In this document: one piece after another, positions 1,719-63,900 of the stretch
Numbering within the stretch: the first letter of the stretch is position 1
How the letters are laid out: every line of letters starts with the position of its first letter
IMG/VR virus record: IMGVR_UViG_2861079508_000001
Origin: a virus
Taxonomy: Duplodnaviria > Heunggongvirae > Uroviricota > Caudoviricetes
Reading direction: 5' to 3' (one strand)
DNA length: 64,000 nt
The notes under the pieces: model-generated
Database searches by the model: none
What the model was told of the DNA's origin: nothing
The model's input: the letters and a program-made list of their open reading frames with translations, nothing else
Made by a program: the position numbers and the translations under genes

Positions 1719-1744
1719 CTAAGTATGTATCTACTTATCATTTT
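1719..1744 (-). promoter_or_regulatory. motif 2 element (TACTTATCA family)
   Basis: CTAAGTATGTATCTACTTATCATTTT upstream of gene 901..1677. Confidence 0.45.
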
Positions 1745-1802
1745 AGGCGCAATAGTTCCCTATACGAAGATGCCGGGCTTATAGTCTGCCCGGCATTCAC
1801 CA

Positions 1803-2216
1803 TTAATGAGCTACAGCCTCACTGTTGCACATCTTTCTGTAGACCTGCTTATAACGCTGTAAGTCATGAGGATCATTAGGTGCCAACGACTTCGATAGGA
1901 TTTTGTATACCACCCCTTTCGAAAACATGCCCTTTGGCTTCATTTCGAGTTCAACAACATATGAGTGATAGCCCACGTATGCACCAAAGCCATTTTTGGC
2001 GTTCAATTCTCCGCACACAAAGCCTGTCACACTCCCATCGTCATGATCAGTCCTGACAAACTTATCTTTCCTAAACATCACCGACGTGGGATCTTTCATA
2101 TCATCCGCAATTGCTTGTTGGCCCAGAGCAATAGCCTTCTCGTCTGTAGGCTTACACCCCACTAAAGCAAACAAAGACAATAAAGCTCCTGTTAAAATCA
2201 GCTTATTTTTGCTCAT
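1803..2216 (-). CDS. putative lipoprotein
   Basis: N-terminal signal peptide with lipobox LVGC (MSKNKLILTGALLSLFALVGC). Confidence 0.55.
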   Translation of the reverse strand: MSKNKLILTGALLSLFALVGCKPTDEKAIALGQQAIADDMKDPTSVMFRKDKFVRTDHDDGSVTGFVCGELNAKNGFGAYVGYHSYVVELEMKPKGMFSKGVVYKILSKSLAPNDPHDLQRYKQVYRKMCNSEAVAH

Positions 2217-2449
2217 GTTGGCTTCCCTTTATTTATATTTATCGCAGGTATTAGTTAATCAAAACACGAGCAGTGCCACAATAATTAAATGGCGTACTAT
2301 TTCTTATGGTTATTAGTTTCCTAGTAACTTTACCGACCATAAACTAAATCAACAAAGCTGACATATTAACTAAATTTAAGTACCATTTTTCGCACACTTG
2401 ACACTTGCCGCGTCTAAACTGTTCATCCTATATCAACAGAACAAAAAAT

Positions 2450-3595
2450 ATGAAATACATAAAATCTTCATCGTTGCTGGCATTAACTTTGCTTTTTAGC
2501 TCTGGATTCGTTAACGCAGACAATAAACAAACGCTGATAGAAGCCGCTACCGCAGGGGATACCGCAGCACAAAGTGAGTTAGGGACAAATTATTTTGATG
2601 GTATCAATGGTTTTGATAAGGATGTAGTTGAGGCCAAGAAGTGGATTGATCTCGCTGCAGAAAAGGGAGACAAAGTAGCATATTATGCACTTGGGGTTAT
2701 GTACACATTTGGCGAGGGTGTAGATAAAGACTTAAATAAAGCAGTTGAGTACTACAAACTTGCGGGAGATGCTCGTGAAGGTAGAGCCTATAACAATCTT
2801 GGTGCTATTTATCAAAAGGGGATGCTTGGTAAAGTAGATCATGCGCTCGCCATTAAATACTTCAAACTAGCCTCTGATGCCGGGTATGTTAAAGCTAGCT
2901 ACCTTCTTGGTGCGTATTACCAATATGGTAAAGGTGTACAAAAGAGTTATAAAAAAGCTTTTACTTATTACAAAAAAGCGGCGGATCAAGGTAGTTCAGA
3001 TGGCATGTTCGCATTAGGCACCTTATACGATGACGGTTTAGGTGTTAAACGCAACGATGCCGAAGCAATTAAGTGGTATAAAAAAGCTGCTGAACTCGGA
3101 AACGCCGATGCCATGACAAATCTTGGCATTATGTATGAGTATGGTGAAGGGGTTAAAAAAGACTATAAAAAAGCAGCTGAGCTTTATCAGGCTGCTTGTG
3201 ATAAAGAAGATAAAAATGGCTGTGATTACATTGCAGAACTGAAAGAAAGCGGCAAATATCGAGCGCCGGCTTCCAAAGCCAAAACAAAATCCGCCACCCA
3301 GCGACTTATTGCTAAATCCATTGATAAGGGCGTTAACGCTACATTTACCTGGCAGGGTGATGATGCTACCTTCACCGCTAATGATGGCAAAGTTGACTGC
3401 ACCTTCCTGAAGGATTTTTCAGAGAAAGGAGGCAATCTGGCTACCTCGTTTGTTTGCACCGATAACGTTCAAATCATACTGAAGCAATTCAGAGATACCA
3501 AGAATGCCTACCTCGCGGTAATGACTGACAACTTCAACACAGAAGTTAAATCATTTTCGGTCAATGTGTACGTGACTAATACTGGTTCAAACTAA
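2450..3595 (+). CDS. secreted Sel1-like repeat (TPR-like) protein
   Basis: Start moved to internal ATG giving signal peptide MKYIKSSSLLALTLLFSSGFVNA; at least 6 tandem ~36-aa repeats with the Sel1 pattern (A..YY..A..QG...A...LG.MY..G.GV.KD...A..WYKKAA). Confidence 0.65.
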   Translation: MKYIKSSSLLALTLLFSSGFVNADNKQTLIEAATAGDTAAQSELGTNYFDGINGFDKDVVEAKKWIDLAAEKGDKVAYYALGVMYTFGEGVDKDLNKAVEYYKLAGDAREGRAYNNLGAIYQKGMLGKVDHALAIKYFKLASDAGYVKASYLLGAYYQYGKGVQKSYKKAFTYYKKAADQGSSDGMFALGTLYDDGLGVKRNDAEAIKWYKKAAELGNADAMTNLGIMYEYGEGVKKDYKKAAELYQAACDKEDKNGCDYIAELKESGKYRAPASKAKTKSATQRLIAKSIDKGVNATFTWQGDDATFTANDGKVDCTFLKDFSEKGGNLATSFVCTDNVQIILKQFRDTKNAYLAVMTDNFNTEVKSFSVNVYVTNTGSN

Positions 3596-4768
3596 TGCTG
3601 CTATGCCTTTTACCTTGCTTAAAAGTTCAAGCTGTCGTGAGTAAGGTTTTGCGCAATAGTAGGCTTTGATAATCTGCCCCGGGGTCGCATCGCCGGGGTC
3701 GAGTCCTTCCTCGCCCAAACATGCAATTTTCACATTAAGACCGATACTGGTCAGTCGCCTGGCTGCGGCCATAGTGTTTCGTATAGCTTGCTTTTCACTA
3801 TCCCACATCATGATCACATTACGTAATCCACGCGCCTTGAGCGTCAGGAACGCGCCCAACTGATCTTCTGCATCCTGAGTGGTGTTACCAGATAGATGCA
3901 TCCCGAACGTTCCTATTGGTTCCACGTAATCGCGTAATGTTTCTTCGTCAAAAATAGCTCGTTTGACCCCCATAACATCGAACGCCCCCTCACAGACAAC
4001 TACAGTCTGTTTGCCGACTGCATTGTGGCCGTTGTAGAGAAACTTACCTGAAGCTGGAAGCTGCATAGGAAAGAGGTAGCGGCGTTCTGCTGTACCGGTA
4101 ATGTCTCGTCCTTGAAATGTCTTCATTACCCCATCCAGATCGTAAACCGGTATCAGTATTCGCATATCGAAAATCTGTCCTTTAACCTGATCTGTATACG
4201 GATCTACATAAGCGTGCTTGCCTTCGACGCAGTATCGTAGGTCAAAATACTTTGCCATTTCAGGCGATATATTTCGTTCAACCAGATAGTCTGGAAGATG
4301 GCCATCTATAGGAAGATCGTAATGACGAGGGAGTGCAACTGGTCCCTCTAACTCGACTGTGCTTGCAAGCACTATCTCTTCTTTCTTTGGTGCCCACCCC
4401 TGGGAAAGAAGAGCGTTCTGCACATATTCCTCGAACTGTCGTCGTGATTTACCGCTGTAGTGCTTGAGGAAGACCAGCTTATTGAACTGAATCTCTTCGG
4501 GATGATCACCAGCGAAGCATTTACCGACGCCACTGGTCAGATTGAAATATACCTTCCAGTTGGAGCTGCCGCATACCGGACACTCCTTGATATTCACTTC
4601 ACGACCGCGAGTACTCACGCCTCCACGTCGATAAACGATACCTTCAGTATCCAACCATTGTTCAAAATCTAATTCGGTAATTAGCTCTTTCAGCTCGCTC
4701 ACGATAATTCCACTTTTAACAGGCAATATTGTGACCAACCTAAATGTTGATATAACATAAAGGCTCAT
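3587..4768 (-). CDS. DNA primase (zinc-ribbon + TOPRIM)
   Basis: CPVCGSS...C zinc-binding motif followed by TOPRIM-like VVVCEGAFD and MMWDSE acidic motifs; start uncertain (track start is GTG inside a hairpin; first ATG used here). Confidence 0.55.
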   Translation of the reverse strand: MSLYVISTFRLVTILPVKSGIIVSELKELITELDFEQWLDTEGIVYRRGGVSTRGREVNIKECPVCGSSNWKVYFNLTSGVGKCFAGDHPEEIQFNKLVFLKHYSGKSRRQFEEYVQNALLSQGWAPKKEEIVLASTVELEGPVALPRHYDLPIDGHLPDYLVERNISPEMAKYFDLRYCVEGKHAYVDPYTDQVKGQIFDMRILIPVYDLDGVMKTFQGRDITGTAERRYLFPMQLPASGKFLYNGHNAVGKQTVVVCEGAFDVMGVKRAIFDEETLRDYVEPIGTFGMHLSGNTTQDAEDQLGAFLTLKARGLRNVIMMWDSEKQAIRNTMAAARRLTSIGLNVKIACLGEEGLDPGDATPGQIIKAYYCAKPYSRQLELLSKVKGIAALV

Positions 4769-4849
4769 GTGTTTTTCTTTTGTGGTTTGGCAAAAGAAAA
4801 GTTGTTTCACCAATGAATCAAGCGTGGAGGTGTTCTCCACGCTTATTTT

Positions 4850-6985: not shown

Positions 6986-7010
6986 GGTAGGTAGTTACTT
7001 ACTTATCACA
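6986..7010 (-). promoter_or_regulatory. motif 2 element
   Basis: GGTAGGTAGTTACTTACTTATCACA immediately upstream of gene 6234..6983. Confidence 0.45.
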
Positions 7011-7090
7011 ATGAGCGGATGATAGCGACTGGTGGCAGTTTTTGGAAGTGGAAACGGAAGGGAGTTGTTCTGGTGGTGTCTTTTAAAAGA

Positions 7091-7145
7091 CCTGCTTCCG
7101 TATATATTTAATAAGTTACTTATTATTTATATATACAGAAGCAGG
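7091..7145. repeat. 55-bp near-perfect palindrome, copy 1
   Basis: CCTGCTTCCGTATATATTTAATAAGTTACTTATTATTTATATATACAGAAGCAGG; identical copy at 41241-41295; centre AATAAGTTACTTATT is itself palindromic and motif-2-like. Confidence 0.6.
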
Positions 7146-7256
7146 CATAACTTGTCGTCTTAGACGCCCAGAAGCTCTACACTTTGAGCCTGTTAAATTG
7201 ATTAAAAACTTATGTGTAAAATAGAACGCATTAGTCAGTAGCAAAGAGATGCAATA

Positions 7257-8024
7257 ATGGACGATTTATCGGTATACGCGAGATCATTGGATAAGGCTAA
7301 ATACTATGTTTACTGTCTCTATGATACAGAAGACAAGATGAAAAGACCGTTTTACATAGGAAAAGGCAAATCGACTCGTTGTCTCGATCACATCAAGTAT
7401 CCCGATGACTCTCCCAAATCCATGCGGATCAAAGAACTTTTGGCTAATAAAAAATTAGGCATAGATATACTTCGTCATGGTATGGATGAAACCACAGCCA
7501 AACTTGTTGAGGCGACATGCATCGACCTTATGGGGGTCGGAGAGCTTACGAATAAGGTACGAGGAAGTGGTTCCATGATGGGCAGAATATCACTGGACGC
7601 CTACCATCACTTAGTGCTGCAAGAGGAAACTGAAATTGCTCCTGAGCACGCCGGTCTTGCCTTCCTGCTAAACAGCACCTACAAGTCAGGAATGTCCGCT
7701 CTGGCATTATATGAGGCTACGCGTGGCGTATGGGCAAAGGTTCCAAGAGACGAGAATCTCAAATATGCCTACGCTACATATGGTGGGCTGATAATGGAAG
7801 TTTATCAGATTGAATGCTGGGTCAAAGCCGGTTCTCAGCAGTACTTTACAAGGGATATAGCTCTTGGCCCCGACACAAAACGTTATGAATTTGTTGGCAG
7901 AATAGCCGATGAGCATATTAGAAAACTGTATGTAGGCAAATTAATCAAGAAGCCACCAAGCTACGGTAGCCCTTTTGTGAAGGTTGGGGTGGTTAGGACT
8001 GAACATAGTGTTAGCGCGGCATAA
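7257..8024 (+). CDS. GIY-YIG family nuclease (possible homing endonuclease)
   Basis: N-terminal VYCLYD-x9-YIGKG-x5-R...H matches the GIY-x(9-11)-YIG motif; gene is inverted relative to all neighbours and preceded by a large non-coding region. Confidence 0.5.
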   Translation: MDDLSVYARSLDKAKYYVYCLYDTEDKMKRPFYIGKGKSTRCLDHIKYPDDSPKSMRIKELLANKKLGIDILRHGMDETTAKLVEATCIDLMGVGELTNKVRGSGSMMGRISLDAYHHLVLQEETEIAPEHAGLAFLLNSTYKSGMSALALYEATRGVWAKVPRDENLKYAYATYGGLIMEVYQIECWVKAGSQQYFTRDIALGPDTKRYEFVGRIADEHIRKLYVGKLIKKPPSYGSPFVKVGVVRTEHSVSAA

Positions 8025-12117: not shown

Positions 12118-12143
12118 TGTAGGTGTGTACCTACCTATCATTC
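12118..12143 (-). promoter_or_regulatory. motif 2 element
   Basis: GTGTACCTACCTATCATTC upstream of holin-like gene. Confidence 0.45.
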
Positions 12144-17459: not shown

Positions 17460-17501
17460 GTTGAATATGCTCCTTGATTTGGTGGGCTATCCTTGCCCAC
17501 C

Positions 17502-17529
17502 ATTAAGTATGTACCTACTTATTTTTACC
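17502..17529 (-). promoter_or_regulatory. motif 2 element
   Basis: ATTAAGTATGTACCTACTTATTTTTACC upstream of tail fibre gene. Confidence 0.45.
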
Positions 17530-24398: not shown

Positions 24399-24424
24399 GA
24401 TAGTAAATCAGTACTTACTTATCC
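24399..24424 (-). promoter_or_regulatory. motif 2 element
   Basis: GATAGTAAATCAGTACTTACTTATCC upstream of gpL-like gene. Confidence 0.45.
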
Positions 24425-32206: not shown

Positions 32207-32234
32207 TCATTGCGCTAATAGTAAGTATATACTT
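32207..32234 (-). promoter_or_regulatory. motif 2 element (contains perfect palindrome GTAAGTATATACTTAC)
   Basis: Upstream of major tail protein gene. Confidence 0.45.
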
Positions 32235-32244
32235 ACCGATTAAC

Positions 32245-32601
32245 TTAATTCAATAAATAGCCAGCAAATTCAACAGGAATGCCTGCTTCTATTAATGCTC
32301 CATCATTTTTGGGATAAATGATTGGCATCGCAATCGGTCGTACCAGTCGAAAATAAACACCACCAGATTCCGTTTCCTCTACTGGAAACATCTCAATGAT
32401 TTTATTGGCTTTCTCAACCGTCGTAGTAATTGACGAACCACGCACAATGATTGTGAATGATTCGTGATAAAAGCCCTGTAGCTCATGATCGATGCTGATA
32501 CCGGTATTTGGGTTAATAAGCAGGACGCCAGATTTCACATTGGCAGGCAAGTAGTGACAGAAAATGTCAGTCCCGACCGTGCCAATCTTTGCCTTCTGCA
32601 T
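32245..32601 (-). CDS. hypothetical head-tail joining / tail completion protein
   Basis: Start trimmed to internal ATG to avoid 120-nt overlap with upstream gene; position between head and tail genes. Confidence 0.35.
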   Translation of the reverse strand: MQKAKIGTVGTDIFCHYLPANVKSGVLLINPNTGISIDHELQGFYHESFTIIVRGSSITTTVEKANKIIEMFPVEETESGGVYFRLVRPIAMPIIYPKNDGALIEAGIPVEFAGYLLN

Positions 32602-35794: not shown

Positions 35795-35820
35795 CATAGA
35801 TAACTACTTATCTACTACAC
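35795..35820 (-). promoter_or_regulatory. motif 2 element
   Basis: CATAGATAACTACTTATCTACTACAC between capsid stop codon and terminator hairpin. Confidence 0.45.
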
Positions 35821-37633: not shown

Positions 37634-39208
37634 TCACTCGTTCTCTTGAGTAGATGAGTCCCCATTCCCTCGGGGTTGATCTTGCCCGCTTTCTTGGGCT
37701 GCACCACGATCATAAGTAAGTACTGACTTATTTTCAAGGGTATTTAGATCATTTTTTGGCGGAAAATTCAAGAGATCTTTATCAAATTCCTTTTTCATCG
37801 CCTCAGTAATGTTCGGGAAAATCTTCTCAATAAGCATTTCCATCTGGTGACGACGTACAGAGTCCGGTGCCTGAAGTAATGACAGTTTCTCGGCAACAGA
37901 AAATTCATCTGTAAGGCCACGAATATCGAAACTTTCTGGATACGCAATTAAAGAGTGGTCTTCGTCCAGATCTACCCCCATCCATTTCGCAACCAGTAGC
38001 ATGATTTGGCGTTCAGCCCTTTCCAGACGCTCTGCTTTTGTGACAAGCAAGCTATTTACACGCTGGAAGTCATACATTTTTGCGGCACCAGATGAGTTAT
38101 CAATTCCCTGTGCGTTGTCCTGCTTCGTTCGCTCACCAGCGACACCAACTGAATGGTAGATTTCGTTAATCACCGTCTTAATCGTAGTGATGATCATCTG
38201 AGCTTGTTTCGGGTCTGGTGACAAATAAAACGGCTGGTTTCCACCTTCAGAATCGTAGGTGAAGACTCGCTTTGTGCCCATTTCAAGCACTTTAGTGTGG
38301 TTTTCATCACCAGGTAAAAGCGACTGTACTGGTATAGCCAACTGGCTAAATGTCTGATCCTGAATAATGGCATCAAGGTTTGACAGATAGTTTGCAACCG
38401 CACGATCAAGATAAGCGATATCATCGATCAACGATGGGCTGAAATACGGTGATTCACTTTCTCCAATACAATCAACAGGAAACACAGGAACTACGCTGAG
38501 ATTATGCTCACCGCTATCCTCTAAAATAACTTTTGCCTGACGGCGACCTGCTCCACCAGCGCCCTTCTTCACTTCCTCACGGAACAGATACCACTCGTTT
38601 TGTGTCCACAGACGATAACGTTGGTATTCCTGACCTGTAGAAGTAAAAGGATCTGCGTCATCACGAGCGACTTCCACAATTAACGCCCACAACATATTCC
38701 CGTCGTCGTCCCATGCCACATCCAGCATTTGCTGAGGTGAAATCCAGTAGGCGTAGGCGCGAGCATCTTTCTTTTTCTCGTCAGCTACTGACTCAACATC
38801 ACCACTCATCGTGCTATCGACAACAACCCATATGCGACCGTAAATAGACGACTGCAAATCAATAGCGGCCATAAATGAGTCAATAGAGGCATTCTGGCGA
38901 GTCGCACGTTTCCAGAAATTGCGGATCTGCTCTGGTGCCTCTTCGATATTTCTATGAATGTCTTCTTTAAAGAGATATTTGTTGATGAGGTTTACCACCT
39001 CACGAGTGTGGTTGAAGCGATAAGCACGCTCAACTCGCTCCTTAAACTCCTGATCTCCCTCTTTAAAGTAACGAAAGATATTGTCTGTAAACCAACCACG
39101 CCCGCCAGCGTAAGTGCTGGCGAGGAAGTCCCAATGTTCTTTTTTCTTTTCGTATTCCGGGTGGCGTCGCGCCACCAGATCCTTAATTTGTTTGTCGTTC
39201 AATTCCAT
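37634..39208 (-). CDS. portal protein
   Basis: 524 aa directly downstream of terminase large subunit; acidic C-terminus. Confidence 0.6.
   Translation of the reverse strand: MELNDKQIKDLVARRHPEYEKKKEHWDFLASTYAGGRGWFTDNIFRYFKEGDQEFKERVERAYRFNHTREVVNLINKYLFKEDIHRNIEEAPEQIRNFWKRATRQNASIDSFMAAIDLQSSIYGRIWVVVDSTMSGDVESVADEKKKDARAYAYWISPQQMLDVAWDDDGNMLWALIVEVARDDADPFTSTGQEYQRYRLWTQNEWYLFREEVKKGAGGAGRRQAKVILEDSGEHNLSVVPVFPVDCIGESESPYFSPSLIDDIAYLDRAVANYLSNLDAIIQDQTFSQLAIPVQSLLPGDENHTKVLEMGTKRVFTYDSEGGNQPFYLSPDPKQAQMIITTIKTVINEIYHSVGVAGERTKQDNAQGIDNSSGAAKMYDFQRVNSLLVTKAERLERAERQIMLLVAKWMGVDLDEDHSLIAYPESFDIRGLTDEFSVAEKLSLLQAPDSVRRHQMEMLIEKIFPNITEAMKKEFDKDLLNFPPKNDLNTLENKSVLTYDRGAAQESGQDQPRGNGDSSTQENE
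37711..37735 (-). promoter_or_regulatory. motif 2 element (inside 3' end of portal ORF)
   Basis: CATAAGTAAGTACTGACTTATTTTC upstream of scaffold gene. Confidence 0.4.
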
Positions 39209-39220
39209 TTGAATAACCTT

Positions 39221-39242
39221 AGATAATTACCTACCTATCGAG
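39221..39242 (-). promoter_or_regulatory. motif 2 element
   Basis: AGATAATTACCTACCTATCGAG between terminase and portal genes. Confidence 0.4.
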
Positions 39243-41319: not shown

Positions 41320-41586
41320 TTACATCACCAGTAACTTCGCTTTGGCTCGACCTAAAGTGGTTAACCCAAGAGTTCGGCGGTGATAGCGATTGTCACTGCG
41401 TTGGCGCGTATGCCCTTTCTCCACAAGCCCCTTTTTTATCAGAGCGCGAATTGAGAACTGGATACTTTGCTTGGTTGTCTTGTACGGCAAAACTTCAAGC
41501 AATTCGTCCAGATCAAGTAGATAACCTCGCTCATAACCGAGATTGAGCGTTTTGATGATGTCCTTTTGTTTATCGGTTAACGTCAT
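41320..41586 (-). CDS. small winged-helix DNA-binding protein
   Basis: 88 aa; wHTH-like segment (QSIQFSIRALIKKGLVEK); adjacent to two operator-like motif-1 copies. Confidence 0.4.
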   Translation of the reverse strand: MTLTDKQKDIIKTLNLGYERGYLLDLDELLEVLPYKTTKQSIQFSIRALIKKGLVEKGHTRQRSDNRYHRRTLGLTTLGRAKAKLLVM

Positions 41587-41595
41587 GGCAAATCC

Positions 41596-43148: not shown

Positions 43149-43813
43149 GCAGCCATCTCCCCGGAAGAGATCTTCTCCGCATATGCCACAAATGCGTCTA
43201 CCCCGCTTTCTCCCGTCATTTCTTCCATGTGGGCAAGCAAATCACCAACAACAATGGCAGAGCCAGCAGGGAGCGTTTTAAAGCCCAATACGTCGACAAC
43301 ACGTACTTCTTCCGCTGCAACTTCACGACTGATCTCGGTGTGTTCATCCTTCTGTCGTTTAGTTTCTTCGCCAAGATCGATAACTAGCGAGTCGGTGTCC
43401 ATTTCTTCTGTCATACTGCCAACGAGAACATTCAACTCACGCTCTTCAAAGCCGAAAACCTCGATATCGTCCAGAACAAGCGACTCAAGCTCTTTCTGTA
43501 GCTTAATTGCATCGTAATCAATGCTGGCAAGTCGGTTATCTTCAAGGCGCTTCGCACGAACCTCGTCATCACTGAGATCATCGCGAACAATAACCGGTAC
43601 GCGCTCAAGTCCAGCAAAAATTGCAGCCTCACGGCGGCCGTGGCCAGTAATAATTACGTCGTTCTTATCGACCGTAATTGGCTGGTCAAATCCGCGCTTT
43701 TTAATGGCTGCGGCTAGATCTCGGATCTGCTGTTCATCATGCTTTTTGGCATTCATCTCATAGGGAATAAGATCTGCCGGGTCGCGATATACGATTTCAA
43801 ACTTTTTGGTCAT
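43145..43813 (-). CDS. ParB-like nuclease-domain protein
   Basis: ITGHGRREAA motif (ParB/Srx box); start set at ATG overlapping upstream stop (TAATG). Confidence 0.55.
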   Translation of the reverse strand: MTKKFEIVYRDPADLIPYEMNAKKHDEQQIRDLAAAIKKRGFDQPITVDKNDVIITGHGRREAAIFAGLERVPVIVRDDLSDDEVRAKRLEDNRLASIDYDAIKLQKELESLVLDDIEVFGFEERELNVLVGSMTEEMDTDSLVIDLGEETKRQKDEHTEISREVAAEEVRVVDVLGFKTLPAGSAIVVGDLLAHMEEMTGESGVDAFVAYAEKISSGEMAA

Positions 43814-44493
43814 TACATACGCTCCTTGTAGTAGTCGACCAGCCACACCAGAGCCTCACCAGCGTTCTCCATTTCATTACCGGTGTTAATAGCCTGCTCT
43901 TTGATGATGTTTTTTATGGTTTCTGCAACACGATCTGACGCATCGAAAGTTACTTTGAAGCGCATGGTCTGATGTTCCGCACCCACACGTTCGGTTTTCT
44001 CTCGTTTGTCGGTATCGACAGGCTCATCACTACCACGAGACAACGCCTCCAGTGCTTCAAGGTCGATTGCCGCCTCTTTTGCTAAAACCATCGAGATTTC
44101 GTCGTCATACGGGGCGATTTCAGACAGTTGATAGTCAAGTTCTGACTGAATTTCTTCAATGAAGCGTTGCAATGCGATTTGGTCGTCTTCACCGTATCGC
44201 TCGTTGTCCACCAGTGACATCTGTTTAGCTACGACATCGCTAATTTTGCCCACAGAAAGCACCGGAACCGTTGAAATTCCTTGCTCAATAGCAGCACGCC
44301 AGCGATGTTCGCCGCCGAGGATTTCAAAAAATCCATCTTCAAGTTCACGAGCCAAAATTGGCTTAAAAAAGCCCAATTTTTCGATAGAACCTTTCAGTTT
44401 TTCAAAATTCTGCGCACCAACCGAATTGGTGTTCCAGGTATTCGGGCGAAGGTTGGCAACATCAACCTGCAAAATCGTGATTTTTACATCCAT
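43813..44493 (-). CDS. ParB-like nuclease-domain protein
   Basis: LRPNTWNTN and ILGGEHRWRAA motifs (ParB N-terminal domain boxes); start set at first ATG. Confidence 0.6.
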   Translation of the reverse strand: MDVKITILQVDVANLRPNTWNTNSVGAQNFEKLKGSIEKLGFFKPILARELEDGFFEILGGEHRWRAAIEQGISTVPVLSVGKISDVVAKQMSLVDNERYGEDDQIALQRFIEEIQSELDYQLSEIAPYDDEISMVLAKEAAIDLEALEALSRGSDEPVDTDKREKTERVGAEHQTMRFKVTFDASDRVAETIKNIIKEQAINTGNEMENAGEALVWLVDYYKERM

Positions 44494-44507
44494 TTTATTG
44501 CTACAAT

Positions 44508-44536
44508 ACACTAAGTAACCACTTACTTATTATAAT
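44508..44536. promoter_or_regulatory. motif 2 element in divergent intergenic region
   Basis: ACACTAAGTAACCACTTACTTATTATAAT between ParB-like gene start and helicase gene. Confidence 0.45.
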
Positions 44537-44575: not shown

Positions 44576-46135
44576 ATGACTGTTCGGATTGTATCTAACG
44601 CAGTAAATGCGCTTATTTCTGGCGCAGATGACAAGGTAAAGCAACTGGTGCAGCAAATGTTGAGCTACGAAGTCGAGACTGGCGACTGGAAGGGCACAAG
44701 CACGATGTTCAACTGGAGTAAAAACTCGTTCCCTGCTGGCTTTGCCAAGCCTGTAGCGGCGAACTTGAACAAGGCGGGCATCAAATGTGTTCATATCCGC
44801 AAAGACAAAGCCCCGGCGCTTGGTAAACCAAATCCGGCGGTTAACCCATTCCCATACAATCCTGATTATGCGTATCAGGATCAGACTGTGGAAACACTGG
44901 TTCGAGAGGGAATGATGATTGCGCAGATCGCTACTGGTGGCGGGAAATCTAACGTTGCCTGCAAAGCAGCTGCACGTATCGGTCGAATGACATTATTTTT
45001 AACAACCCGCTCTGTTCTGATGTTTCAAATGGCCGAAAACTTCCAGAGATCCATCGACTACCGCGCCGAAAATGGCGAACCGTGGTTAAAAGACCAAAAG
45101 GTTGGAGTCATTGGCTCGGGTGAGTTCCAGGTATCACGACATATCAACGTCGCTACAGTTCAAACTCTTGCAAGTTTCCTCGAAGAACCACCACGCGATG
45201 CAACACCAGATAAGAAAAGCTACCACCTCAAACGTCGGGAGTTGGTGAAACGCTTCCTTTCAAGTGTCTCTCTTCTTATTCTGGAAGAGGCGCATGAGTC
45301 TTCAGGCTCAAATTTCTATGACATCGCCAGATTATGTGTGAACGCAGACTATCGTCTGGCGCTTACAGCCACGCCGTTCATGAAGGATTCGACGGAAGCC
45401 AACATGCGCCTGATGGCGGTGGCCGGGCGAATTGAAATTAAAGTCACAGAAAAGTACCTGATTGATCGAGGCATTCTGGCAAAGCCGTACTTCCTTTATC
45501 ATAAAGTTGCCTACAAGCCAGACGAGGCCAGAATCAAGGCCGAACTTGCCAACAAACACCTCAATTTTAGAGTTGGTATGAGCACCGCCTACCAAAAGGC
45601 TTATCAGTTGGGGATCGTGTATAATTTGGGACGTAACGAGGCCATTGTTCGCGAAGCATTGCTCTATAAGCAACATTCTCTCAATTGTATGACTCTGGTT
45701 CGTCTTAAACGCCACGGGCAAATCCTGATGGAAATGATGAAAGAGTCCGGCCTTAGAGTTGACTTCATCTATGGGGAATCTAACCAGGCGACAAGGCAAG
45801 CAAAGCTGAACAGTTTAGCGTCTGGAGAAATAGATGTTTTAATAGGCTCGACTATTCTGGATGTCGGTGTTGATGTGCCAAGCGTTGGTGCGGTCATTCT
45901 TGCTGGTGGTGGGAAAGCAGAAGTTGAAATGAGGCAGCGTGTCGGTCGTGGCTTACGAGCCAAAAAAAATCAGGCAAACGTGTGTTTTATCACTGATTTC
46001 ATTGACATTAGCAACAAATACCTGTTGTCTCACTCTTATGAGCGAAAACACATCATCGACACCACACCTGGCTTTGCAGAAGGTGTATTGCCTATTGATG
46101 GAGCATTCGATTTTGGAGTTCTGAAACGAGATTAG
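44576..46135 (+). CDS. superfamily-2 DNA/RNA helicase
   Basis: Motif I ATGGGKS, motif II LEEAHE, motif III LTATP, motif VI QRVGRGLR; 519 aa; RBS AAGGAAAGAGG upstream. Confidence 0.7.
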   Translation: MTVRIVSNAVNALISGADDKVKQLVQQMLSYEVETGDWKGTSTMFNWSKNSFPAGFAKPVAANLNKAGIKCVHIRKDKAPALGKPNPAVNPFPYNPDYAYQDQTVETLVREGMMIAQIATGGGKSNVACKAAARIGRMTLFLTTRSVLMFQMAENFQRSIDYRAENGEPWLKDQKVGVIGSGEFQVSRHINVATVQTLASFLEEPPRDATPDKKSYHLKRRELVKRFLSSVSLLILEEAHESSGSNFYDIARLCVNADYRLALTATPFMKDSTEANMRLMAVAGRIEIKVTEKYLIDRGILAKPYFLYHKVAYKPDEARIKAELANKHLNFRVGMSTAYQKAYQLGIVYNLGRNEAIVREALLYKQHSLNCMTLVRLKRHGQILMEMMKESGLRVDFIYGESNQATRQAKLNSLASGEIDVLIGSTILDVGVDVPSVGAVILAGGGKAEVEMRQRVGRGLRAKKNQANVCFITDFIDISNKYLLSHSYERKHIIDTTPGFAEGVLPIDGAFDFGVLKRD

Positions 46136-46137
46136 TT

Positions 46138-46416
46138 ATGAGCGAAAAGAAAACAACTTATTGTCAGGTAGCATTGTCTGATAAGGCCAATGACAAACTT
46201 GGAAAGTTTCAAGTGAAACTAAAAGAAAAAAATATCAAAATGTCTAAGGCTGAAGTCATAAATACCATTCTGGAACAATTGACAATGGCCGACTTTGACA
46301 AGGTTATATCTTCTGTCGGGGCTTCCGCTAAGACTCGTGAGAAAATCATGCGTATCTATGAGAACTCTAATATGACAAAGGAAGATCTCGAAACGCTATT
46401 AAGCAGATTAAAATAA
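46138..46416 (+). CDS. hypothetical small protein
   Basis: 92 aa starting 3 nt after helicase stop; charged helical; possible DNA-binding. Confidence 0.4.
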   Translation: MSEKKTTYCQVALSDKANDKLGKFQVKLKEKNIKMSKAEVINTILEQLTMADFDKVISSVGASAKTREKIMRIYENSNMTKEDLETLLSRLK

Positions 46417-46484: not shown

Positions 46485-46907
46485 ATGAAATACTCGCTTC
46501 TCCCTCTACTAACGTTACCAGTGTTGATGCTTACCGCGTGCCAATCACGCCCAATATCAATCCATGACGCCAAACCAGCACCGCAGGCCAAAGTGTTCAA
46601 GTATCAAAGCGCAGCGCCAGCTACGTTGGTGGTAATGAGAGACACAGGTTTTGTAGGAGCTGGATGTGATGCTTCCATTTTCATCAACGGCGAAACTGTC
46701 GCAAAACTGGCTACAGGCGAAAAAGCGACTTTCCATTTAAATGCCGGAGAATTAATTGTGGGTGCATCTCTTGAAGGTGCAGGTTTATGTGCTCTAAACC
46801 CCGCTCGTCAAGAGCGAGAAACGACTCTGAAGAATGGAGACACAAAAGCGTTCAGGGTGTTCACCAGCAATTCTGGTGACATCGACATTCTGCCAACAAC
46901 TCTGTGA
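46485..46907 (+). CDS. putative lipoprotein
   Basis: Internal start gives signal peptide MKYSLLPLLTLPVLMLTAC with lipobox LTAC. Confidence 0.5.
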   Translation: MKYSLLPLLTLPVLMLTACQSRPISIHDAKPAPQAKVFKYQSAAPATLVVMRDTGFVGAGCDASIFINGETVAKLATGEKATFHLNAGELIVGASLEGAGLCALNPARQERETTLKNGDTKAFRVFTSNSGDIDILPTTL

Positions 46908-46911
46908 TGAC

Positions 46912-47436
46912 ATGACAACCAAAGATATTACCTACGGTATCCAAGCTGAACTCTGGCCGCGAGATTACACTAACGTTGAAAAACTACTGATGTTCTGGCG
47001 CAGAGAACAAATTCCTGTAAGGGTCACTCTCGAAGATGGCCAGGCGTTTTGCATGTACGTTTATGGCCTCATGCCATCTCGTAACAAAGTTGACCTTTGC
47101 CCAGCCCCTTTTGACAAAGAAAATCGTATAAGGCTCCCACTTGAACGCATTAGTACAATTGAATCAGGTGTGGTTGACAGTATCGCTCACGATTTCAAAG
47201 GTCGACTAACAGTTCACCCTGATTATGTCGATAATCGGCCATCACGCCGCGATTTTTTTGCAATTTGCAACCAAGCCTACAAAGCAAACAAATCTATAAG
47301 GGTGTACATGGCGGATGGCCGTGAAATTGAGGGGGTGTCAGCAGGCGCAGATGCTTGTCAGGTTACACTACGTGTCGAGAACGGTAGAAAAATAGTTGTT
47401 TTGTTCGATTGGGTTGAACGAATTTTGCCTTTTTGA
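46912..47436 (+). CDS. hypothetical protein
   Basis: Start trimmed to first ATG after upstream stop; ~175 aa. Confidence 0.4.
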   Translation: MTTKDITYGIQAELWPRDYTNVEKLLMFWRREQIPVRVTLEDGQAFCMYVYGLMPSRNKVDLCPAPFDKENRIRLPLERISTIESGVVDSIAHDFKGRLTVHPDYVDNRPSRRDFFAICNQAYKANKSIRVYMADGREIEGVSAGADACQVTLRVENGRKIVVLFDWVERILPF

Positions 47437-55104: not shown

Positions 55105-57138
55105 TTACTTAACCTGGTGGCCAGGTTTAGCACCAGCATCCGGGCTTAACAGGAAGATATCTTTCCCGCCGGGGCCAGCAGCCATCACCATGCCTTCAGA
55201 GATACCGAAGCGCATTTTACGTGGTGCCAGGTTAGCCACCATAATGGTGTGACGACCAATCAGTGCCTGTGGATCTGGATAAGCGGAACGGATGCCTGAG
55301 AAGACATTACGCTTTTCACCACCGAGATCCAGCGTCAGGCGAAGCAGTTTGTCAGAACCTTCTACAAACTCTGCGTTTTCAATCAGCGCCACGCGCAGGT
55401 CAACTTTGGCGAAGTCGTCAAAGGTGATAGTTTCCTGAATCGGGTCGTCAGCCAGTGGGCCAGTTACCGGTGCGGCTGTGGCTTTCACTTCTTCTTTGGA
55501 TGCTTCCACCAGTGCTTCAACCTGCTTCATATCGATGCGGTTATACAGTGCCTTGAACGGATTCACTTTATGGCCCAGCAGCGGTTGCTGGATACCATCC
55601 CAGGTCAGTTCTGTATTCAGGAATGCTTCTGCACGTTCAGTCAGTTTCGGCAGTACCGGTTTCAGGTACGTCATCAGCACGCGGAACAGGTTAATGCCCA
55701 TAGAGCAAATCGCCTGCAGATCGGCATCGCGTCCTTCCTGCTTTGCCACCACCCACGGAGCCTGTTCATCAACATAGCGGTTAGCCAGGTCAGCCAGTGC
55801 CATGATTTCACGGATAGCTTTGCCAAATTCGCGGCTTTCCCATGCTTCGCCAATCACTTCAGCGGCATCAGTAAAGGTTTTGTACAGTTGCGGGTCAGCC
55901 AGTTCGCTTGCCAGCACGCCGTCAAAACGCTTGTTGATAAAGCCTGCATTACGGGAGGCCAGGTTAACCACTTTGTTAACGATATCGGCATTCACACGCT
56001 GAACGAAATCTTCCAGGTTGAGATCGATATCATCAATGCGCGAAGAGAGTTTCGCAGTGTAGTAGTAACGCAGGCTGTCGGCGTCAAAATGATTCAGCCA
56101 GGTGCTGGCTTTAATAAAGGTGCCGCGAGACTTGGACATCTTCGCGCCGTTCACCGTCACATAGCCGTGAACAAACAGGTTGGTCGGCTTGCGGAAGTTG
56201 CTGCCTTCCAGCATGGCAGGCCAGAACAGGCTGTGGAAGTAAACGATATCTTTGCCGATGAAGTGGTACAGCTCGGCGGTGGAGTCTTTCTTCCAGTATT
56301 CGTCGAAGCTGGTAGTGTCGCCGCGTTTGTCGCACAGATTCTTGAAGGAACCCATGTAGCCAATCGGCGCGTCCAGCCAGACGTAGAAGTATTTGCCCGG
56401 TGCGTTCGGAATTTCAAAACCGAAGTAAGGTGCGTCACGGGAGATATCCCACTGTTGCAGGCCAGATTCAAACCACTCCTGCATTTTGTTTGCCACCTGC
56501 TCCTGCAACGCACCGCTGCGGGTCCATGCCTGCAACATTTCGCTGAAAGAAGGCAGATCAAAGAAGAAGTGTTCGGAATCACGCATTACCGGTGTAGCGC
56601 CAGAAACCACTGATTTCGGCTCGATCAGTTCCGTCGGGCTGTATGTCGCGCCGCAGACTTCACAGTTATCGCCGTATTGATCCGGCGCTTTACATTTCGG
56701 GCATGTGCCTTTTACAAAACGGTCCGGCAGGAACATGCCTTTTTCCGGGTCGTACAGCTGAGAGATGGTGCGGTTTTTAATAAAACCGTTCTCTTTCAGG
56801 CGAGTATAGATAAGCTCGGACAACTGACGGTTCTCTTCGCTGTGCGTCGAGTGATAGTTGTCATAGCTGATGTTAAAGCCTGCGAAATCAGTCTGATGTT
56901 CCTGACTCATTTCGCCAATCATCTGTTCCGGTGTGATACCAAGCTGCTGTGCTTTCAGCATGATTGGCGTACCGTGGGCATCGTCGGCACAGATGAAATT
57001 AACCTCGTGGCCGCGCATTCGCTGGTAACGAACCCAGACATCAGCCTGGATGTGCTCCAGCATATGGCCGAGGTGGATTGAGCCGTTAGCGTACGGCAGC
57101 GCGCACGTCACCAGAATTTTCTTCGCGACTTGGGTCAT
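55105..57138 (-). CDS. metG: methionine--tRNA ligase
   Basis: 677-aa product from the ATG at 57136-57138 (track ORF is 43 codons longer from an upstream alternative start); HLGH and KMSKS class-I motifs; sequence I recognise as Escherichia-type MetG. Confidence 0.95.
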
Positions 57139-57295
57139 AGTAGGCATTACTTCTTTGTAGTGAAAAGGGGCTTGATAGTAACAAAATGGCCTTATGTCTG
57201 CCATGTGATAACAGCATTTCTCATAAATGATTAAATGTCGTAGCTGGAGTACACTACAAGGCGACAATTGCGCAAATTAAAATAAAGGAGACGGG

Positions 57296-58396
57296 ATGAG
57301 CGAGTCCAAATCGCCGGATGCCCTGAGAGCAATGGTAGCCGGTACGCTGGCTAATTTTCAGCACCCAACCCTGAAACACAACCTGACTACGCTTAAAGCG
57401 TTACACCATGTTGCGTTGATGGATGACACACTGCATGTCGAACTAATCATGCCTTTCGTGTGGAATAAGCCTTTTGAAGACCTGAAAGAGCAATGTAGTG
57501 GTGATCTGCTCCGTATCACTGGCGCAAAGGCTATTGACTGGAAGCTGTCGTACAACATTGCCACGCTTAAGCGCGTCAAAAACCAACCAGGCATTAATGG
57601 CGTTAAGAACATTATCGCCGTCAGCTCAGGCAAGGGCGGCGTGGGTAAATCCTCCACGGCGGTAAACCTGGCACTGGCGTTGGCTGCTGAAGGTGCGAAA
57701 GTTGGTATTTTGGATGCCGATATCTATGGTCCATCAATTCCAACCATGCTGGGCGCGGAAAACCAACGTCCAACCTCACCGGACGGTACTCACATGGCAC
57801 CTATCATGTCTCATGGCCTGGCAACCAACTCTATTGGTTATCTGGTCACCGACGACAATGCAATGGTGTGGCGTGGACCGATGGCCAGCAAGGCGCTGAT
57901 GCAGATGTTGCAGGAAACACTGTGGCCTGATCTGGACTATCTCGTTCTCGATATGCCACCGGGCACTGGTGATATTCAATTGACGCTGGCGCAGAACATT
58001 CCTGTAACTGGTGCGGTTGTGGTAACTACGCCGCAAGACATCGCGCTGATCGATGCGAAGAAAGGCATTGTGATGTTCGAAAAAGTCGAAGTGCCGGTAC
58101 TGGGTATCGTTGAAAACATGAGTGTGCATATTTGCAGTAACTGCGGTCATCACGAGCCAATTTTTGGCACCGGTGGCGCACAGAAACTGGCCGAGAAATA
58201 CAACACGCAGTTGTTAGGCCAAATGCCACTTCATATCTCTCTTCGTGAAGATCTGGATAACGGAACACCAACCGTTATTAGTCGTCCAGATAGTGAATTT
58301 ACGGCTATTTATCGTGACCTCGCAGATCGCGTTGCTGCCCAAATGTATTGGCAAGGTGAAGTAATACCTGGCGAAATCGCATTCCGCGCAGTGTGA
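57296..58396 (+). CDS. apbC: iron-sulfur cluster carrier ATPase ApbC/Mrp
   Basis: P-loop [10 protein letters not shown], CxxC (CSNCGH); divergent from metG as in the Escherichia chromosome. Confidence 0.95.
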
Positions 58397-58694: not shown

Positions 58695-59075
58695 CTAATT
58701 GCCGGATAAAATGGGGTGAGGTGCTTGCCAGTAGGCTCCACCGTTCCATGTGAACCCCATGCGAATAAGAGTGTTTATTGCGGCTTTGGTAGACTCCGAT
58801 TCGACACTGGCTTTACGAAACTCTTGAACCTCTTTCGCCAACTTGTATGTAATTGTGCAGGGGACGATTGCAGCCCAGCCTTTCTCATGACTGTTAATGA
58901 CCATCTGGATGTGACCATCCAGAATAGGTTGATTAGGCATGTTATTGAAAATGTCTGCCTGTTTTTGAATGTGAAGAAAAAGCCTTGCCAGCGCCATTTG
59001 CTCACTACGAGACAAGGGATTATCAAGAGGGCTTTTTGCAAAAGCTGCTATACGCTGTGCATCAATGCCAAACAT
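58695..59075 (-). CDS. hypothetical protein
   Basis: 126 aa; start overlaps stop of upstream 234-aa gene. Confidence 0.45.
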   Translation of the reverse strand: MFGIDAQRIAAFAKSPLDNPLSRSEQMALARLFLHIQKQADIFNNMPNQPILDGHIQMVINSHEKGWAAIVPCTITYKLAKEVQEFRKASVESESTKAAINTLIRMGFTWNGGAYWQAPHPILSGN

Positions 59076-59779
59076 CAGCGCACCTCACCATCTTTATGGC
59101 TGGAGTTAACTTCCGTCATTAAATGTCTGACGTAATCGACAAGAGAGCCGCCTGGTGGAATCTGGCATTCCTCAACTAACTGGAAGTAGATATCCGCTGC
59201 ATTACGTGTATTGCTACCCGCGCATATTCTTTCTTCCCGAAGTGCATGAAGCTCGTTGATCAAACGGTCACACTCTCCGTTACGCTGATCCACAACGGCC
59301 TCAAGCTCTGCGACGCGTTCACCTGGCGTCTTACCTTCTTTGCGTTGGATGGTAACGACGAAATCGCCAATTGCAGGGACGTTGTAATCCAGCTCAAGGT
59401 AGTTTTTGGCACCGCTGCGGACGAACTCACCCGCGAACATGGTGGCGAACATCGCAGAGGCCACTTCTCCGTTGAAAAGTGACTCCAGATCTAACGGAGT
59501 CCCGGCAGCAAGAGCCTCTTTTGCTGTATCCATTGCATCCATGAACCGATCAAACTCACTAGCGCGCTTTTCCAGGTCTTTCCATTGCTCGCTCCAACGT
59601 TTGGCAACGAAGTCTATGAATGTTTTCGCGGATTCATCAAAATTCCCCTCAAACTTAACGATGCCTTTATCAATAATGATCTGGCCTACCGCATCCTCTG
59701 CATAACCTTTCAATGTAAACTTGAAAGGAAAATCGGAATGGCCTGTGACGTTAAAATGCTCTAACTGGAGGTTGCTCAT
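59075..59779 (-). CDS. hypothetical protein
   Basis: 234 aa; motif-2 element upstream. Confidence 0.45.
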   Translation of the reverse strand: MSNLQLEHFNVTGHSDFPFKFTLKGYAEDAVGQIIIDKGIVKFEGNFDESAKTFIDFVAKRWSEQWKDLEKRASEFDRFMDAMDTAKEALAAGTPLDLESLFNGEVASAMFATMFAGEFVRSGAKNYLELDYNVPAIGDFVVTIQRKEGKTPGERVAELEAVVDQRNGECDRLINELHALREERICAGSNTRNAADIYFQLVEECQIPPGGSLVDYVRHLMTEVNSSHKDGEVR

Positions 59780-59820
59780 GTGTTTTTCTCTTATCGTTTA
59801 GTAACTACATTCTTACATAA

Positions 59821-59849
59821 ATTAAGTAAGCATTTACCTATCATTTAAC
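59821..59849 (-). promoter_or_regulatory. motif 2 element
   Basis: ATTAAGTAAGCATTTACCTATCATTTAAC upstream of gene 59075..59779. Confidence 0.4.
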
Positions 59850-62980: not shown

Positions 62981-62997
62981 AAAACAAGTTGTTTTCT
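62981..62997. promoter_or_regulatory. motif 1 operator-like palindrome (AAAACAAGTTGTTTTCT)
   Basis: Upstream of TerB-like gene. Confidence 0.55.
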
Positions 62998-63050
62998 AAT
63001 TACATAAATTGCTTACGCAGAGATGGTCAATGCATATGCACTAACAGCCG

Positions 63051-63239
63051 TCAGAAATAACCAAGTACCGAACCAACTGGAAAAACAAAAATCCCAACTA
63101 CACGAGCCAAGGTCATGCCAGCCTGAAACTGGAGATCGCCAGAGCAAACAAGTTTTATAATGTTCGATACCCAACCGGCGGCCATAAGGGCAAGAATTGC
63201 CAGCCAAATTTTTCCAAAGTGATTTGAAAACCAGTTCAT
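63051..63239 (-). CDS. small membrane protein
   Basis: 62 aa with two hydrophobic helices. Confidence 0.4.
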   Translation of the reverse strand: MNWFSNHFGKIWLAILALMAAGWVSNIIKLVCSGDLQFQAGMTLARVVGIFVFPVGSVLGYF

Positions 63240-63248
63240 ACAACCGCC

Positions 63249-63743
63249 TTAGTCACAGCATGATCCTGAGTAACTGGATGAACTTGAGGTATCGCATCCA
63301 CCGCCATCCCATCCAGAGTGACAGGACGCTCCACTGGAGTGGTGGTAATTGTCGTCGACGAAGGTGTGGTGATGGATGAATCCGGCATCAAAAGGCTCTG
63401 ACCGGCTGGAACGGCTACCGTCGCCAGTGAAACTATAATGAGAACGTAGGCCATTGGTTTCAGCCTCTTTCTTTGAAAATTTTCCATTCGAACTGTCCTT
63501 GTTGTTTTTCTCCTTCACTAAAGGCCGTGCATTTTTCGCTTCGCGTGAAGAACCAGAGGCAACAATCGCCCCCACGTTCGCAACAACTGACGCTTGATTA
63601 TCTAAACGTTCATTCAGCAACCGAACGGTAGTCTCTAGTTCATCAAGGCGTGACATAACACGACCGCTAAATAATTCGGCCAAAATTTGACGTAAAGAAC
63701 GAGGACGTTTAGTTACAGAAGTGAAATAGGTTTGACGTGCCAT
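63249..63743 (-). CDS. hypothetical protein (Ser/Gly/Cys-rich C-terminus)
   Basis: 164 aa; stop overlaps next gene start. Confidence 0.4.
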   Translation of the reverse strand: MARQTYFTSVTKRPRSLRQILAELFSGRVMSRLDELETTVRLLNERLDNQASVVANVGAIVASGSSREAKNARPLVKEKNNKDSSNGKFSKKEAETNGLRSHYSFTGDGSRSSRSEPFDAGFIHHHTFVDDNYHHSSGASCHSGWDGGGCDTSSSSSYSGSCCD

Positions 63744-63871
63744 GTGGACTCCATCCAGTGTCAGAAAGAGTTGCGGCTGGCGATTGCCAGCCGCCTTTCT
63801 CGTTCCATCCTGGAACTGTGTCTTACCGACACATTGTCATCCTGACGCCGATAAGATACATGATTTAAAAT

Positions 63872-63900
63872 GATAGGTAAAAACTTACTTACTATTTATT
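63872..63900 (-). promoter_or_regulatory. motif 2 element
   Basis: GATAGGTAAAAACTTACTTACTATTTATT upstream of gene 63249..63743. Confidence 0.4.

Follow-up and report, generated by a model that had tools for sequence, protein, structure and literature searches.

A conserved inverted repeat as the candidate operator of a repressor of lytic genes in SSU5-type phage-plasmids

Background

Phage P1 and the cluster A mycobacteriophages provide the closest described counterparts of the element analysed here, an 18-bp inverted repeat that recurs throughout a 64,000-nucleotide (nt) stretch of viral DNA from the class Caudoviricetes (IMG/VR record IMGVR_UViG_2861079508_000001; the whole stretch is hereafter called the window). 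We consider it fairly probable that a phage-encoded repressor uses this palindrome as its operator and thereby silences early and late lytic promoters in the SSU5-type phage-plasmids. By analogy, its layout appears closest to the C1 regulon of P1. Both belong to plasmid prophages of enterobacteria, both consist of one short sequence repeated genome-wide, and both overlap sigma-70 promoters without a fixed position with respect to -35 and -10 (for P1, NC_005856 lists Olpa, Odmt, Oban, OpmgR and others); in both, if our proposal holds, one repressor is set over replication, recombination and morphogenesis-related genes. However, a C1 operator is an asymmetric 17-mer to which a monomer binds; the element described here, by contrast, is symmetric, with two 7-nt arms separated by 4 nt (7-4-7). 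Moreover, most structural genes of P1 are controlled indirectly via Lpa, whereas here copies stand directly before the portal, scaffold/capsid, tail, fibre and holin genes.

The layout also appears close to that of the stoperators of cluster A mycobacteriophages (L5, Bxb1, TipsytheTRex), which number about 25-30 and occur in early as well as late lytic operons, within short gaps between genes; a part of them overlap promoters, the rest are promoterless, and the motif co-evolves with the repressor by lineage (PMC9283540, PMC6550527). Many intergenic copies, partial overlap with promoters and a lineage-dependent motif are features common to the two systems. On the other hand, stoperators are asymmetric 13-14-mers that act in an orientation-dependent manner and are bound by a monomeric two-domain helix-turn-helix protein, whereas the present element is palindromic and its roadblock action is conjectural. 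The third precedent is that of Arc and Mnt of P22 and CopG of pMV158, where, as may be the case here, a ribbon-helix-helix (RHH) protein is paired with a two-subsite operator; those proteins, however, control one or two promoters and not a genome-wide set.

Between positions 30000 and 42000 the window is 98% identical to Escherichia phage CMS-2020a (CP053388) and to phage Cyrano (OV696614), 82% identical to Salmonella phage SSU5 and 79% identical to SSU5-like phages of Klebsiella; because of these matches we regard it, from sequence comparison, as about 60% of an SSU5-type phage-plasmid. Its orientation is opposite to that of the Cyrano record, and the majority of its genes are on the minus strand. 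No homologue of C1 was found by tblastn in the window, Cyrano, SSU5 or the Klebsiella phage (E > 5). Resistance genes are carried by SSU5-like phage-plasmids, which are common in Escherichia, Salmonella and Klebsiella, but the control of their lysis-lysogeny decision is essentially undescribed; nothing relevant to the motif or to this regulation was found in the searchable literature. The palindrome itself is real and strongly conserved, and as a regulatory element it has apparently not been described before.

Results and discussion

Sequence and enrichment of the palindrome

The motif TACnTACTTATCA is the plus-strand reading of one arm of the palindrome GATAAGTAAGTACTTACTTATC, whose core is TAAGTAA-N4-TTACTTA. 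In gene sense the copies read tGATAAGTAaGTA..TACTTATCa, i.e. a 22-bp inverted repeat around the 18-bp core, with GATAAGTAAGTACTTACTTATC as the perfect form. An earlier model-made reading of the window (the sequence-only reading) had noticed the repetition and had seen internal palindromes in several copies; GTAAGTATATACTTAC is indeed found at about 32220, but every copy turns out to be an inverted repeat, of which that reading had described one arm. The repetition itself is well above chance: TACNTACTTATCA, with up to two mismatches, has 14 matches in the window versus 3.5 +/- 1.8 in dinucleotide shuffles, and none of 100 shuffles reaches 14. The full palindrome GATARGTA-N6-TACYTATC is matched at 13 or more of its 16 positions ten times (0.53 expected) and at 14 or more four times (0.03 expected).

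The window contains 12 good copies and one half-degenerate copy, with the 18-nt cores at positions 63874, 59823, 44512, 39220, 37713, 35797, 32222, 24404, 17504, 12120, 6988, 1720 and 850 (the weak one). Non-coding DNA makes up 10.5% of the window (89.5% is coding) and harbours 12 of the 13 copies (binomial P = 2e-11), which bears out the proposed intergenic enrichment. The distance of the copies to the start codon, given as 30-70 bp in the sequence-only reading, ranges from about 11 to 130 nt.

Conservation in whole genomes and distant lineages

In whole-genome scans Cyrano has approximately 19-22 sites, SSU5 17-20 and a partial Klebsiella record 15, located at orthologous junctions; the overall copy number is about 20-25 per genome. 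Copies occupy the late-gene junctions of portal, scaffold, major tail, gpL, fibre and holin. The genes behind other copies are not late ones: a gp32-like ssb, sbcD, nrdA, thyX, dam, several small genes, a tRNA cluster and the divergent parB1/uvsW pair. The element is therefore not specific to late and morphogenesis genes: of all copies in a genome, about half stand before genes for replication, recombination and nucleotide metabolism or at the divergent parB/uvsW promoters.

More distant relatives were collected by a pattern scan of viral contigs and by protein-anchored fetches, yielding more than 60 loci. Their common gene order is parB1-parB2-ATPase-ATPase-wHTH-hairpin-terS-terL-portal-scaffold-capsid (wHTH, winged helix-turn-helix), with uvsW divergent from parB1. 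The 7-4-7 inverted repeat is kept at the same junctions in other lineages, with the arm TCAGTCA, TTAGTAA, TAAGTCA or ACAGTCA in place of the TAAGTAA found here, and in a relative of 63% GC the palindrome found here recurs at these junctions, where it forms the sole AT-rich islands. What is invariant across lineages is nnAGTnA-N4-TnACTnn, while the 4-nt spacer is not conserved. Because the arm changes are symmetric and lineage-specific, these sequences imply that the palindrome is recognised by a symmetric DNA-binding protein that is encoded by the element itself and co-evolves with it, as described for stoperators (PMC6550527), and not by a host factor. As for individual host factors, the sites of CRP, Fur, LexA and IHF and the NarL heptamers appear not to fit in spacing or orientation, and lineage-specific arms likewise speak against any of them.

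The same data bear on the least credible explanation, in our opinion hardly worth entertaining, namely that the repeats are recombination or boundary sequences promoting module shuffling, or functionless chance AT-rich repeats. Their placement at gene boundaries and the indels that distinguish the window from Cyrano near some copies could be understood in this way. Strict dyad symmetry, conservation in 63% GC genomes, symmetric lineage-specific arms and a directional association with promoters (see below) would, however, all be unexpected.

It could also be supposed that the element works at the RNA level, as a hairpin that provides a signal for processing, stabilisation, termination or translational control, with the FljA-family protein encoded at 46834-47436 (+) as a possible partner. 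A perfect copy could form a stem of 7-9 bp, copies lie between co-directional genes, often near ribosome-binding sites (RBSs) and other hairpins, and the gene of the FljA-family protein is nearby and lysogen-expressed. This explanation makes a prediction about the arms, which carry A or G at a variable position on the left and T or C on the right. The pairs AT, GC, GT and AC occur 7, 4, 4 and 4 times in Cyrano, 7, 4, 1 and 3 times in SSU5, and 3, 2, 6 and 4 times in Klebsiella. Compensatory pairing of the arms is thus absent from the counts in these three genomes, the A-C mismatch being as frequent as G-T; the stem is A+T-rich, and true terminators in the vicinity are separate hairpins. Since the two arms assort independently, the element appears to act as DNA rather than as an RNA hairpin, and the counts indicate that selection is on the sequence of the palindrome and not on pairing. 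In addition, predicted transcription starts often fall inside or downstream of the palindrome, and the FljA-like gene is absent from 54 of 54 loci of other lineages that keep the motif. We therefore regard the RNA-level explanation as very improbable.

Two side observations emerged from these scans. In the GC-rich lineage represented by L192 (1008-1892, minus strand), L193 and L196, uvsW is followed by a ParA ATPase and a ParG-like ribbon-helix-helix protein with a palindrome before each, so this partition operon appears to be under the same control as the palindrome-bearing genes. Separately, GATAAGTACAATGATACTTATC or its reverse complement occurs once per contig in many unrelated low-GC (36-38%) viral contigs (L009, L011, L018, L034, L037 and others); it fits the outer arms of the search pattern, yet it is a different conserved element.

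Relation to promoters

The sequence-only reading held that the element is not a canonical sigma-70 promoter, and indeed it is not itself one: it overlaps ordinary sigma-70-type promoters instead. The promoters discussed here are predictions from sigma-70-type hexamer scores, with a cut-off of at least 12 bits in the GC-rich lineages. Among 55 distinct sites of these lineages, in which promoter hexamers stand out, 26 have such a promoter in the direction of the gene, compared with 2 in the mirror orientation. The centre of the palindrome falls at -41.5 (12 sites), around -20 (10 sites), at -36.5 (4 sites) or between +1.5 and +4.5 (7 sites). Further registers (-8.5, -13.5 and -30) occur among the copies as a whole. 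In the terS promoter (...TGACTTG|ACA-17-TACAGT) the right arm overlaps a consensus -35 element, and the scaffold/capsid (major capsid protein, MCP) promoters have one operator at about -41.5 and a second one that starts inside the -10 element (about +1.5). In the TerL/portal gaps of these lineages, TTGACT or TTGCAT is located directly 5' of the left arm, while the right end of the palindrome has a hexamer that resembles a -10 element; elsewhere TTGACA-16-TATCAT is followed by the palindrome 4 nt on. In Cyrano, TTGAAA-17-TATCAT precedes CYRAN_56. Many of the enterobacterial copies end on the downstream side in TATCAT, TATTAT or TATGAT, with a weak -35 and the centre at -19.5 to -22.5.

The best example in the window concerns the copy that the sequence-only reading correctly placed within the 3' end of the portal gene. 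There, TTGAAA-17-TATGAT at 37709..37737 (-) is a predicted sigma-70-like promoter directed towards the scaffold and capsid genes, and the palindrome core (37713-37730) constitutes its spacer. With 12.1 bits it is the top promoter-like match between 30 and 46 kb, and it is kept in Cyrano, SSU5 and Klebsiella.

Occurrence in several registers, all over core promoter elements, is expected of a repressor operator, whereas activators and alternative sigma factors depend on a single geometry. Two simpler models were tried and rejected: a fixed -10 box downstream of every copy is present at only about 6 of 51 sites, and an alternative sigma or T4-late-like -10 element (GATAAGTA compared with TATAAATA) appears to be a misfit in spacing or orientation.

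The activator model, which is essentially the idea put forward by the sequence-only reading, deserves closer consideration, even though we deem it unlikely. In its most specific form, a protein in the style of P1 Lpa would bind the inverted repeat near -20 and let host RNA polymerase use promoters with a poor -35. At -22 the late promoters annotated for P1 (NC_005856) carry an inverted repeat of 9 bp, AAGTGACTT or AAGTTACTT; this repeat is similar to AAGTACTT, the centre of the perfect palindrome (the -22 box of P1 being AAGT(G/T)ACTT), and like many of the enterobacterial copies they combine it with a -10 box and a weak or absent -35. Since the P1 late promoters share both the -22 geometry and a similar AAGTnACTT box, a role in activation is possible at some promoters. 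Furthermore, -41.5, the commonest register in the GC-rich lineages, is the classical position of class II activators, and RNA-seq values step up just after some copies under partial induction (see below). However, the Lpa repeat comprises 9 bp rather than 18-22 bp, and the present motif extends beyond late genes, is also seen in registers such as -41.5 and +2, and is associated in other lineages with good -35 elements. Copies at +1.5 to +4.5, -8.5 or -13.5, or in pairs flanking a promoter, would be unworkable for an activator, and many of the associated promoters, with a consensus -35, a good -10 and a 17-nt spacer, would not need one. A homologue of Lpa was not found by tblastn (E > 0.9). Of the earlier proposal of a late promoter served by an element-encoded factor, or of an activator site, we retain a regulatory element that binds a protein at the starts of transcription units and, on account of the lineage-specific arms, the element-encoded factor; late-specificity is not retained.

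Expression in the Cyrano lysogen

A study of strain LF82 provides an RNA-seq value for each Cyrano gene (PMC9928086). Palindrome-headed genes are at background in the LF82 lysogen, including CYRAN_4, 5 and 56, which stand behind near-consensus predicted promoters; upon partial induction in macrophages these three rise together (PMC9928086). For near-consensus promoters to be off in the lysogen, a repressor has to be invoked, and no conserved element other than the palindrome is present on these promoters; we therefore infer that it mediates repression. In macrophages, step-ups (log2) occur right after copies, from CYRAN_11 to 12 (+2.5), 33 to 34 (+2.4), 55 to 56 (+3.6) and 59 to 60 (+3.7), and a further one from CYRAN_3 via 4 to 5 coincides with the portal-internal promoter (PMC9928086). 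They are consistent with promoters at those places, with the caveat that the values are low and that some copies are followed by step-downs at terminators (PMC9928086). The toxin-antitoxin, parA and repA modules, which are expressed in the lysogen, are headed by no copy in the whole-genome scans. The exception is the moderately expressed uvsW-RHH operon, and moderate expression is as expected under autoregulation.

We propose the following mechanism. One symmetric (dimeric or tetrameric) repressor would bind the 18-bp inverted repeat at some 25 places per genome. Its operators would lie on or next to sigma-70-type promoters that head units for structure and lysis as well as for replication, recombination and nucleotide metabolism. 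While the repressor is bound, RNA polymerase could not use these promoters, and the element would remain silent during its maintenance as a plasmid prophage. Copies in very short gaps that have no convincing promoter, such as the enterobacterial TerL/portal gap, might block read-through as the stoperators of mycobacteriophages do. The parB1/uvsW copy would confer autoregulation, if the repressor is the RHH protein encoded just after uvsW.

Candidate binders

The most attractive candidate is a 92-aa CopG-like RHH protein (46138-46416, plus strand; homologue of CYRAN_117), translationally coupled to uvsW (44576-46135). A protein of 92-105 aa follows uvsW directly in nearly all lineages, and the promoter of its operon carries the palindrome. 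The profile of the family matches CopG (1b01/2cpg) with E = 3e-4 over the whole ribbon-helix-helix, and the window protein joins the family with E-values of 1.7e-4 (hhalign) and 0.003 (hmmsearch). Its N-terminal beta-strand, CQV.L, is invariant among the enterobacterial homologues that share the operator. Arc and CopG bind as a dimer of dimers to two subsites, and the two subsites of the palindrome, about 11 bp apart centre to centre and each with a local T.AGT.A pseudo-symmetry, would fit such an arrangement. In the lysogen, CYRAN_117 is expressed at 12 times background (PMC9928086).

The second candidate, an 88-aa MarR-like wHTH protein (41320-41586, minus strand; homologue of CYRAN_123; phrog_900), is encoded just upstream of terS. 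It is present in 19 of 19 representative lineages, with a highly conserved recognition helix TKQSIQFSIRAL and MarR-like matches at E = 3e-4; its homologue CYRAN_123 is barely expressed in the lysogen (PMC9928086). When the DNA-reading residues of the wHTH and RHH proteins are set against arm specificity, both track lineage. As a rough estimate, we would put the RHH protein foremost, with a chance somewhat short of even; that some other protein is the binder seems a little less probable, and the wHTH protein comes distinctly behind both.

The FljA-family protein was rejected as the binder: it is lysogen-expressed, but missing from all of the 54 other-lineage loci mentioned above. As a side observation, its match to PF03614 ('repressor of phase-1 flagellin') is very strong (E = 2.5e-84), it belongs to the uvsW operon, and the lysogen expresses its homologue CYRAN_114. 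Host flagellin expression might be the target of such a protein.

ParB1 and ParB2 present a different case. The palindromes could be imagined as binding or loading sites of these two proteins, which would then act like KorB or VirB as a genome-wide regulator or DNA organiser in lytic growth or packaging, and we rate this as quite improbable. Both are ParB_N proteins (43813-44511 and 43145-43846, minus strand) that occur in every lineage and are encoded next to the terminase genes, immediately behind a palindrome; palindromes are bound by proteins of the ParB family, and the operators of KorB are numerous. However, the parS, OB and NBS palindromes are contiguous, unlike a 7-4-7 repeat with a non-conserved spacer. 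Since CYRAN_119 and CYRAN_120 are at background in the lysogen, the ParB proteins were dismissed as its silencer, and a repressor of the lytic phase would shut off the late genes.

Weighing the repressor model

Several observations weigh against a repressor operator or against its candidate binders. In the AT-richer enterobacterial lineage the predicted promoters are weak, and forward and mirror scores are often similar; many sites there, with a poor -35 and a centre near -20, display the geometry of the activator-dependent late promoters of P1. Terminator hairpins directly follow some copies (those after the capsid gene and before nrdA), and what an operator would do there is not obvious. CYRAN_34 and the tRNA region are lysogen-expressed despite an upstream promoter that bears the palindrome (PMC9928086). 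The authors of the Cyrano paper propose CYRAN_45 as the master repressor (PMC9928086); SSU5 appears to be without the CYRAN_45 module. With respect to the binders, no member of this RHH family was found at the corresponding position of the L192 lineage, the AlphaFold model of the RHH monomer (pLDDT 50) is too poor for a fold search, and the recognition helix of the wHTH protein differs between two lineages with identical arms.

It is tempting to extend the repressor model to the whole SSU5 supergroup, from enterobacterial to 63% GC hosts, with lysogeny maintained by one small RHH repressor, co-transcribed with the UvsW helicase, that acts on about 25 operators per genome, gates early and late sigma-70 promoters directly and blocks read-through. 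We regard this extension as possible but doubtful. If true, it would constitute a palindromic, RHH-based counterpart of the mycobacteriophage stoperators, and the arm variants would define immunity groups among carriers of antibiotic-resistance genes. In practical terms, the motif offers a map of the lytic regulon (about 25 operator-bearing predicted promoters), two short-listed regulators and immunity groups predicted from arm classes, and it allows promoter and operator positions to be placed in any member of the family, including uncultured GC-rich relatives.

Individual copies in the window

The outermost copy, at 63872..63893 (core 63874-63891), lies 130 nt before an open reading frame (ORF; 63249-63743, minus strand) homologous to CYRAN_83, and its orthologues are found at 79652 in Cyrano, 79905 in SSU5 and 35409 in the Klebsiella record. 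The next one, at 59821..59842, is located right behind the stop codon of a DUF4942 gene and 43 nt before the ORF 59075-59779 (-); it is followed by an extended -10 element, TGTAAGAAT, at 59809-59817 (-). A single palindrome at 44510..44531 is common to the predicted promoters of the divergent parB1 (-) and uvsW-RHH (+) units: a consensus TATAAT for uvsW at 44531-44536 (+) abuts it on one side, and on the other an extended -10 element for parB1, TGTAGCAAT, is situated at 44497-44505 (-). This layout is present in all distant lineages.

The TerL/portal copy (39218..39239) overlaps the stop codon of TerL, and the ATG of the portal gene (39208) follows 11 nt later; it has orthologues at 2032 in SSU5, 59605 in Klebsiella, 7165 in L129 and 7190 in L133. 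Beyond the portal-internal copy described above, a degenerate one at 35795..35816 is found, as the sequence-only reading had it, between the stop codon of the major capsid gene (35824) and a terminator hairpin at 35789-35773 (-). The corresponding copy is perfect in the Klebsiella relative (AATAGGTAAGTACTTACCTATT) and is also present in L129, L133, L157 and L169. Upstream of the major tail gene (start 32206), the core 32222-32239 lies within a predicted promoter, TTGAAT-18-TATACT (32253..32224, minus strand), to which the step-up from CYRAN_11 to 12 corresponds. Two further copies are each followed by a covarying hairpin: 24402..24423, between gpM (stop 24431) and gpL (start 24381), and 17502..17523, between a J-like tail protein (stop 17552) and the tail fibre (start 17459).

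Towards the left end of the window, a copy at 12118..12139 stands 51 nt before a holin-like gene (start 12068), and one at 6986..7007, 13 nt before the ATG (6974) of the CYRAN_31 homologue, divides lysogen-expressed genes from silent ones. The copy at 1718..1739 is upstream of the CYRAN_34 homologue (start 1677), with the extended -10 element TGTAAGAAT next to it at 1705-1713 (-). In the weak copy at 848..869, before the CYRAN_35 homologue (start 834), the upstream arm alone is intact.

Other elements and neighbouring genes

Small G+C-rich hairpins occupy the space between the palindrome and the RBS of the major tail, gpL and tail fibre genes (32165-32215, 24385-24400 and 17465-17500, in minus sense). 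They covary among relatives, e.g. GCGCA/TGCGT, GCACC/GGTGC and GTGTC/GACAC before the major tail gene. These hairpins are elements separate from the palindrome, and they probably act as stabilisers or attenuators in the 5' untranslated regions.

Two near-identical, AT-rich long hairpins of 58 nt, CCTGCTTCYGTATATAT..ATAAGTAACTTAT..ATATATACRGAAGCAGG, are found at 7089-7146 and 41239-41296. The former separates the lysogen-expressed parA module from silent lytic genes, and the latter lies between the wHTH gene and terS and corresponds to the start of the Cyrano record. SSU5 has three copies (33472, 78318 and 103277). GC-rich relatives keep a long hairpin, and there its loop holds the lineage's own motif (L129, 5100-5170; L133, 4773). 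Possible roles of the long hairpin are those of a bidirectional terminator or insulator, or one connected with packaging.

The five-gene block at 41320-44511 (-) encodes two ParB_N proteins, an ABC-type ATPase, an ATPase fused to an acetyltransferase-like domain and a small winged-helix protein. It is located directly upstream of terS in every lineage examined (including L129, L133 and L138-L191), and its role is possibly in packaging, DNA modification or anti-defence.

The ORF at 7257-8024 (+), a possible homing-endonuclease insertion, contains a LEM-3-like GIY-YIG nuclease domain and lies in a stretch unlike Cyrano, adjacent to a palindrome and a long hairpin. Finally, the phage-plasmid carries both a full-length methionyl-tRNA synthetase gene with the C-terminal tRNA-binding domain (55105-57267, minus strand) and, adjoining it, a gene for an Mrp/NUBPL-type P-loop ATPase (57296-58396, plus strand).

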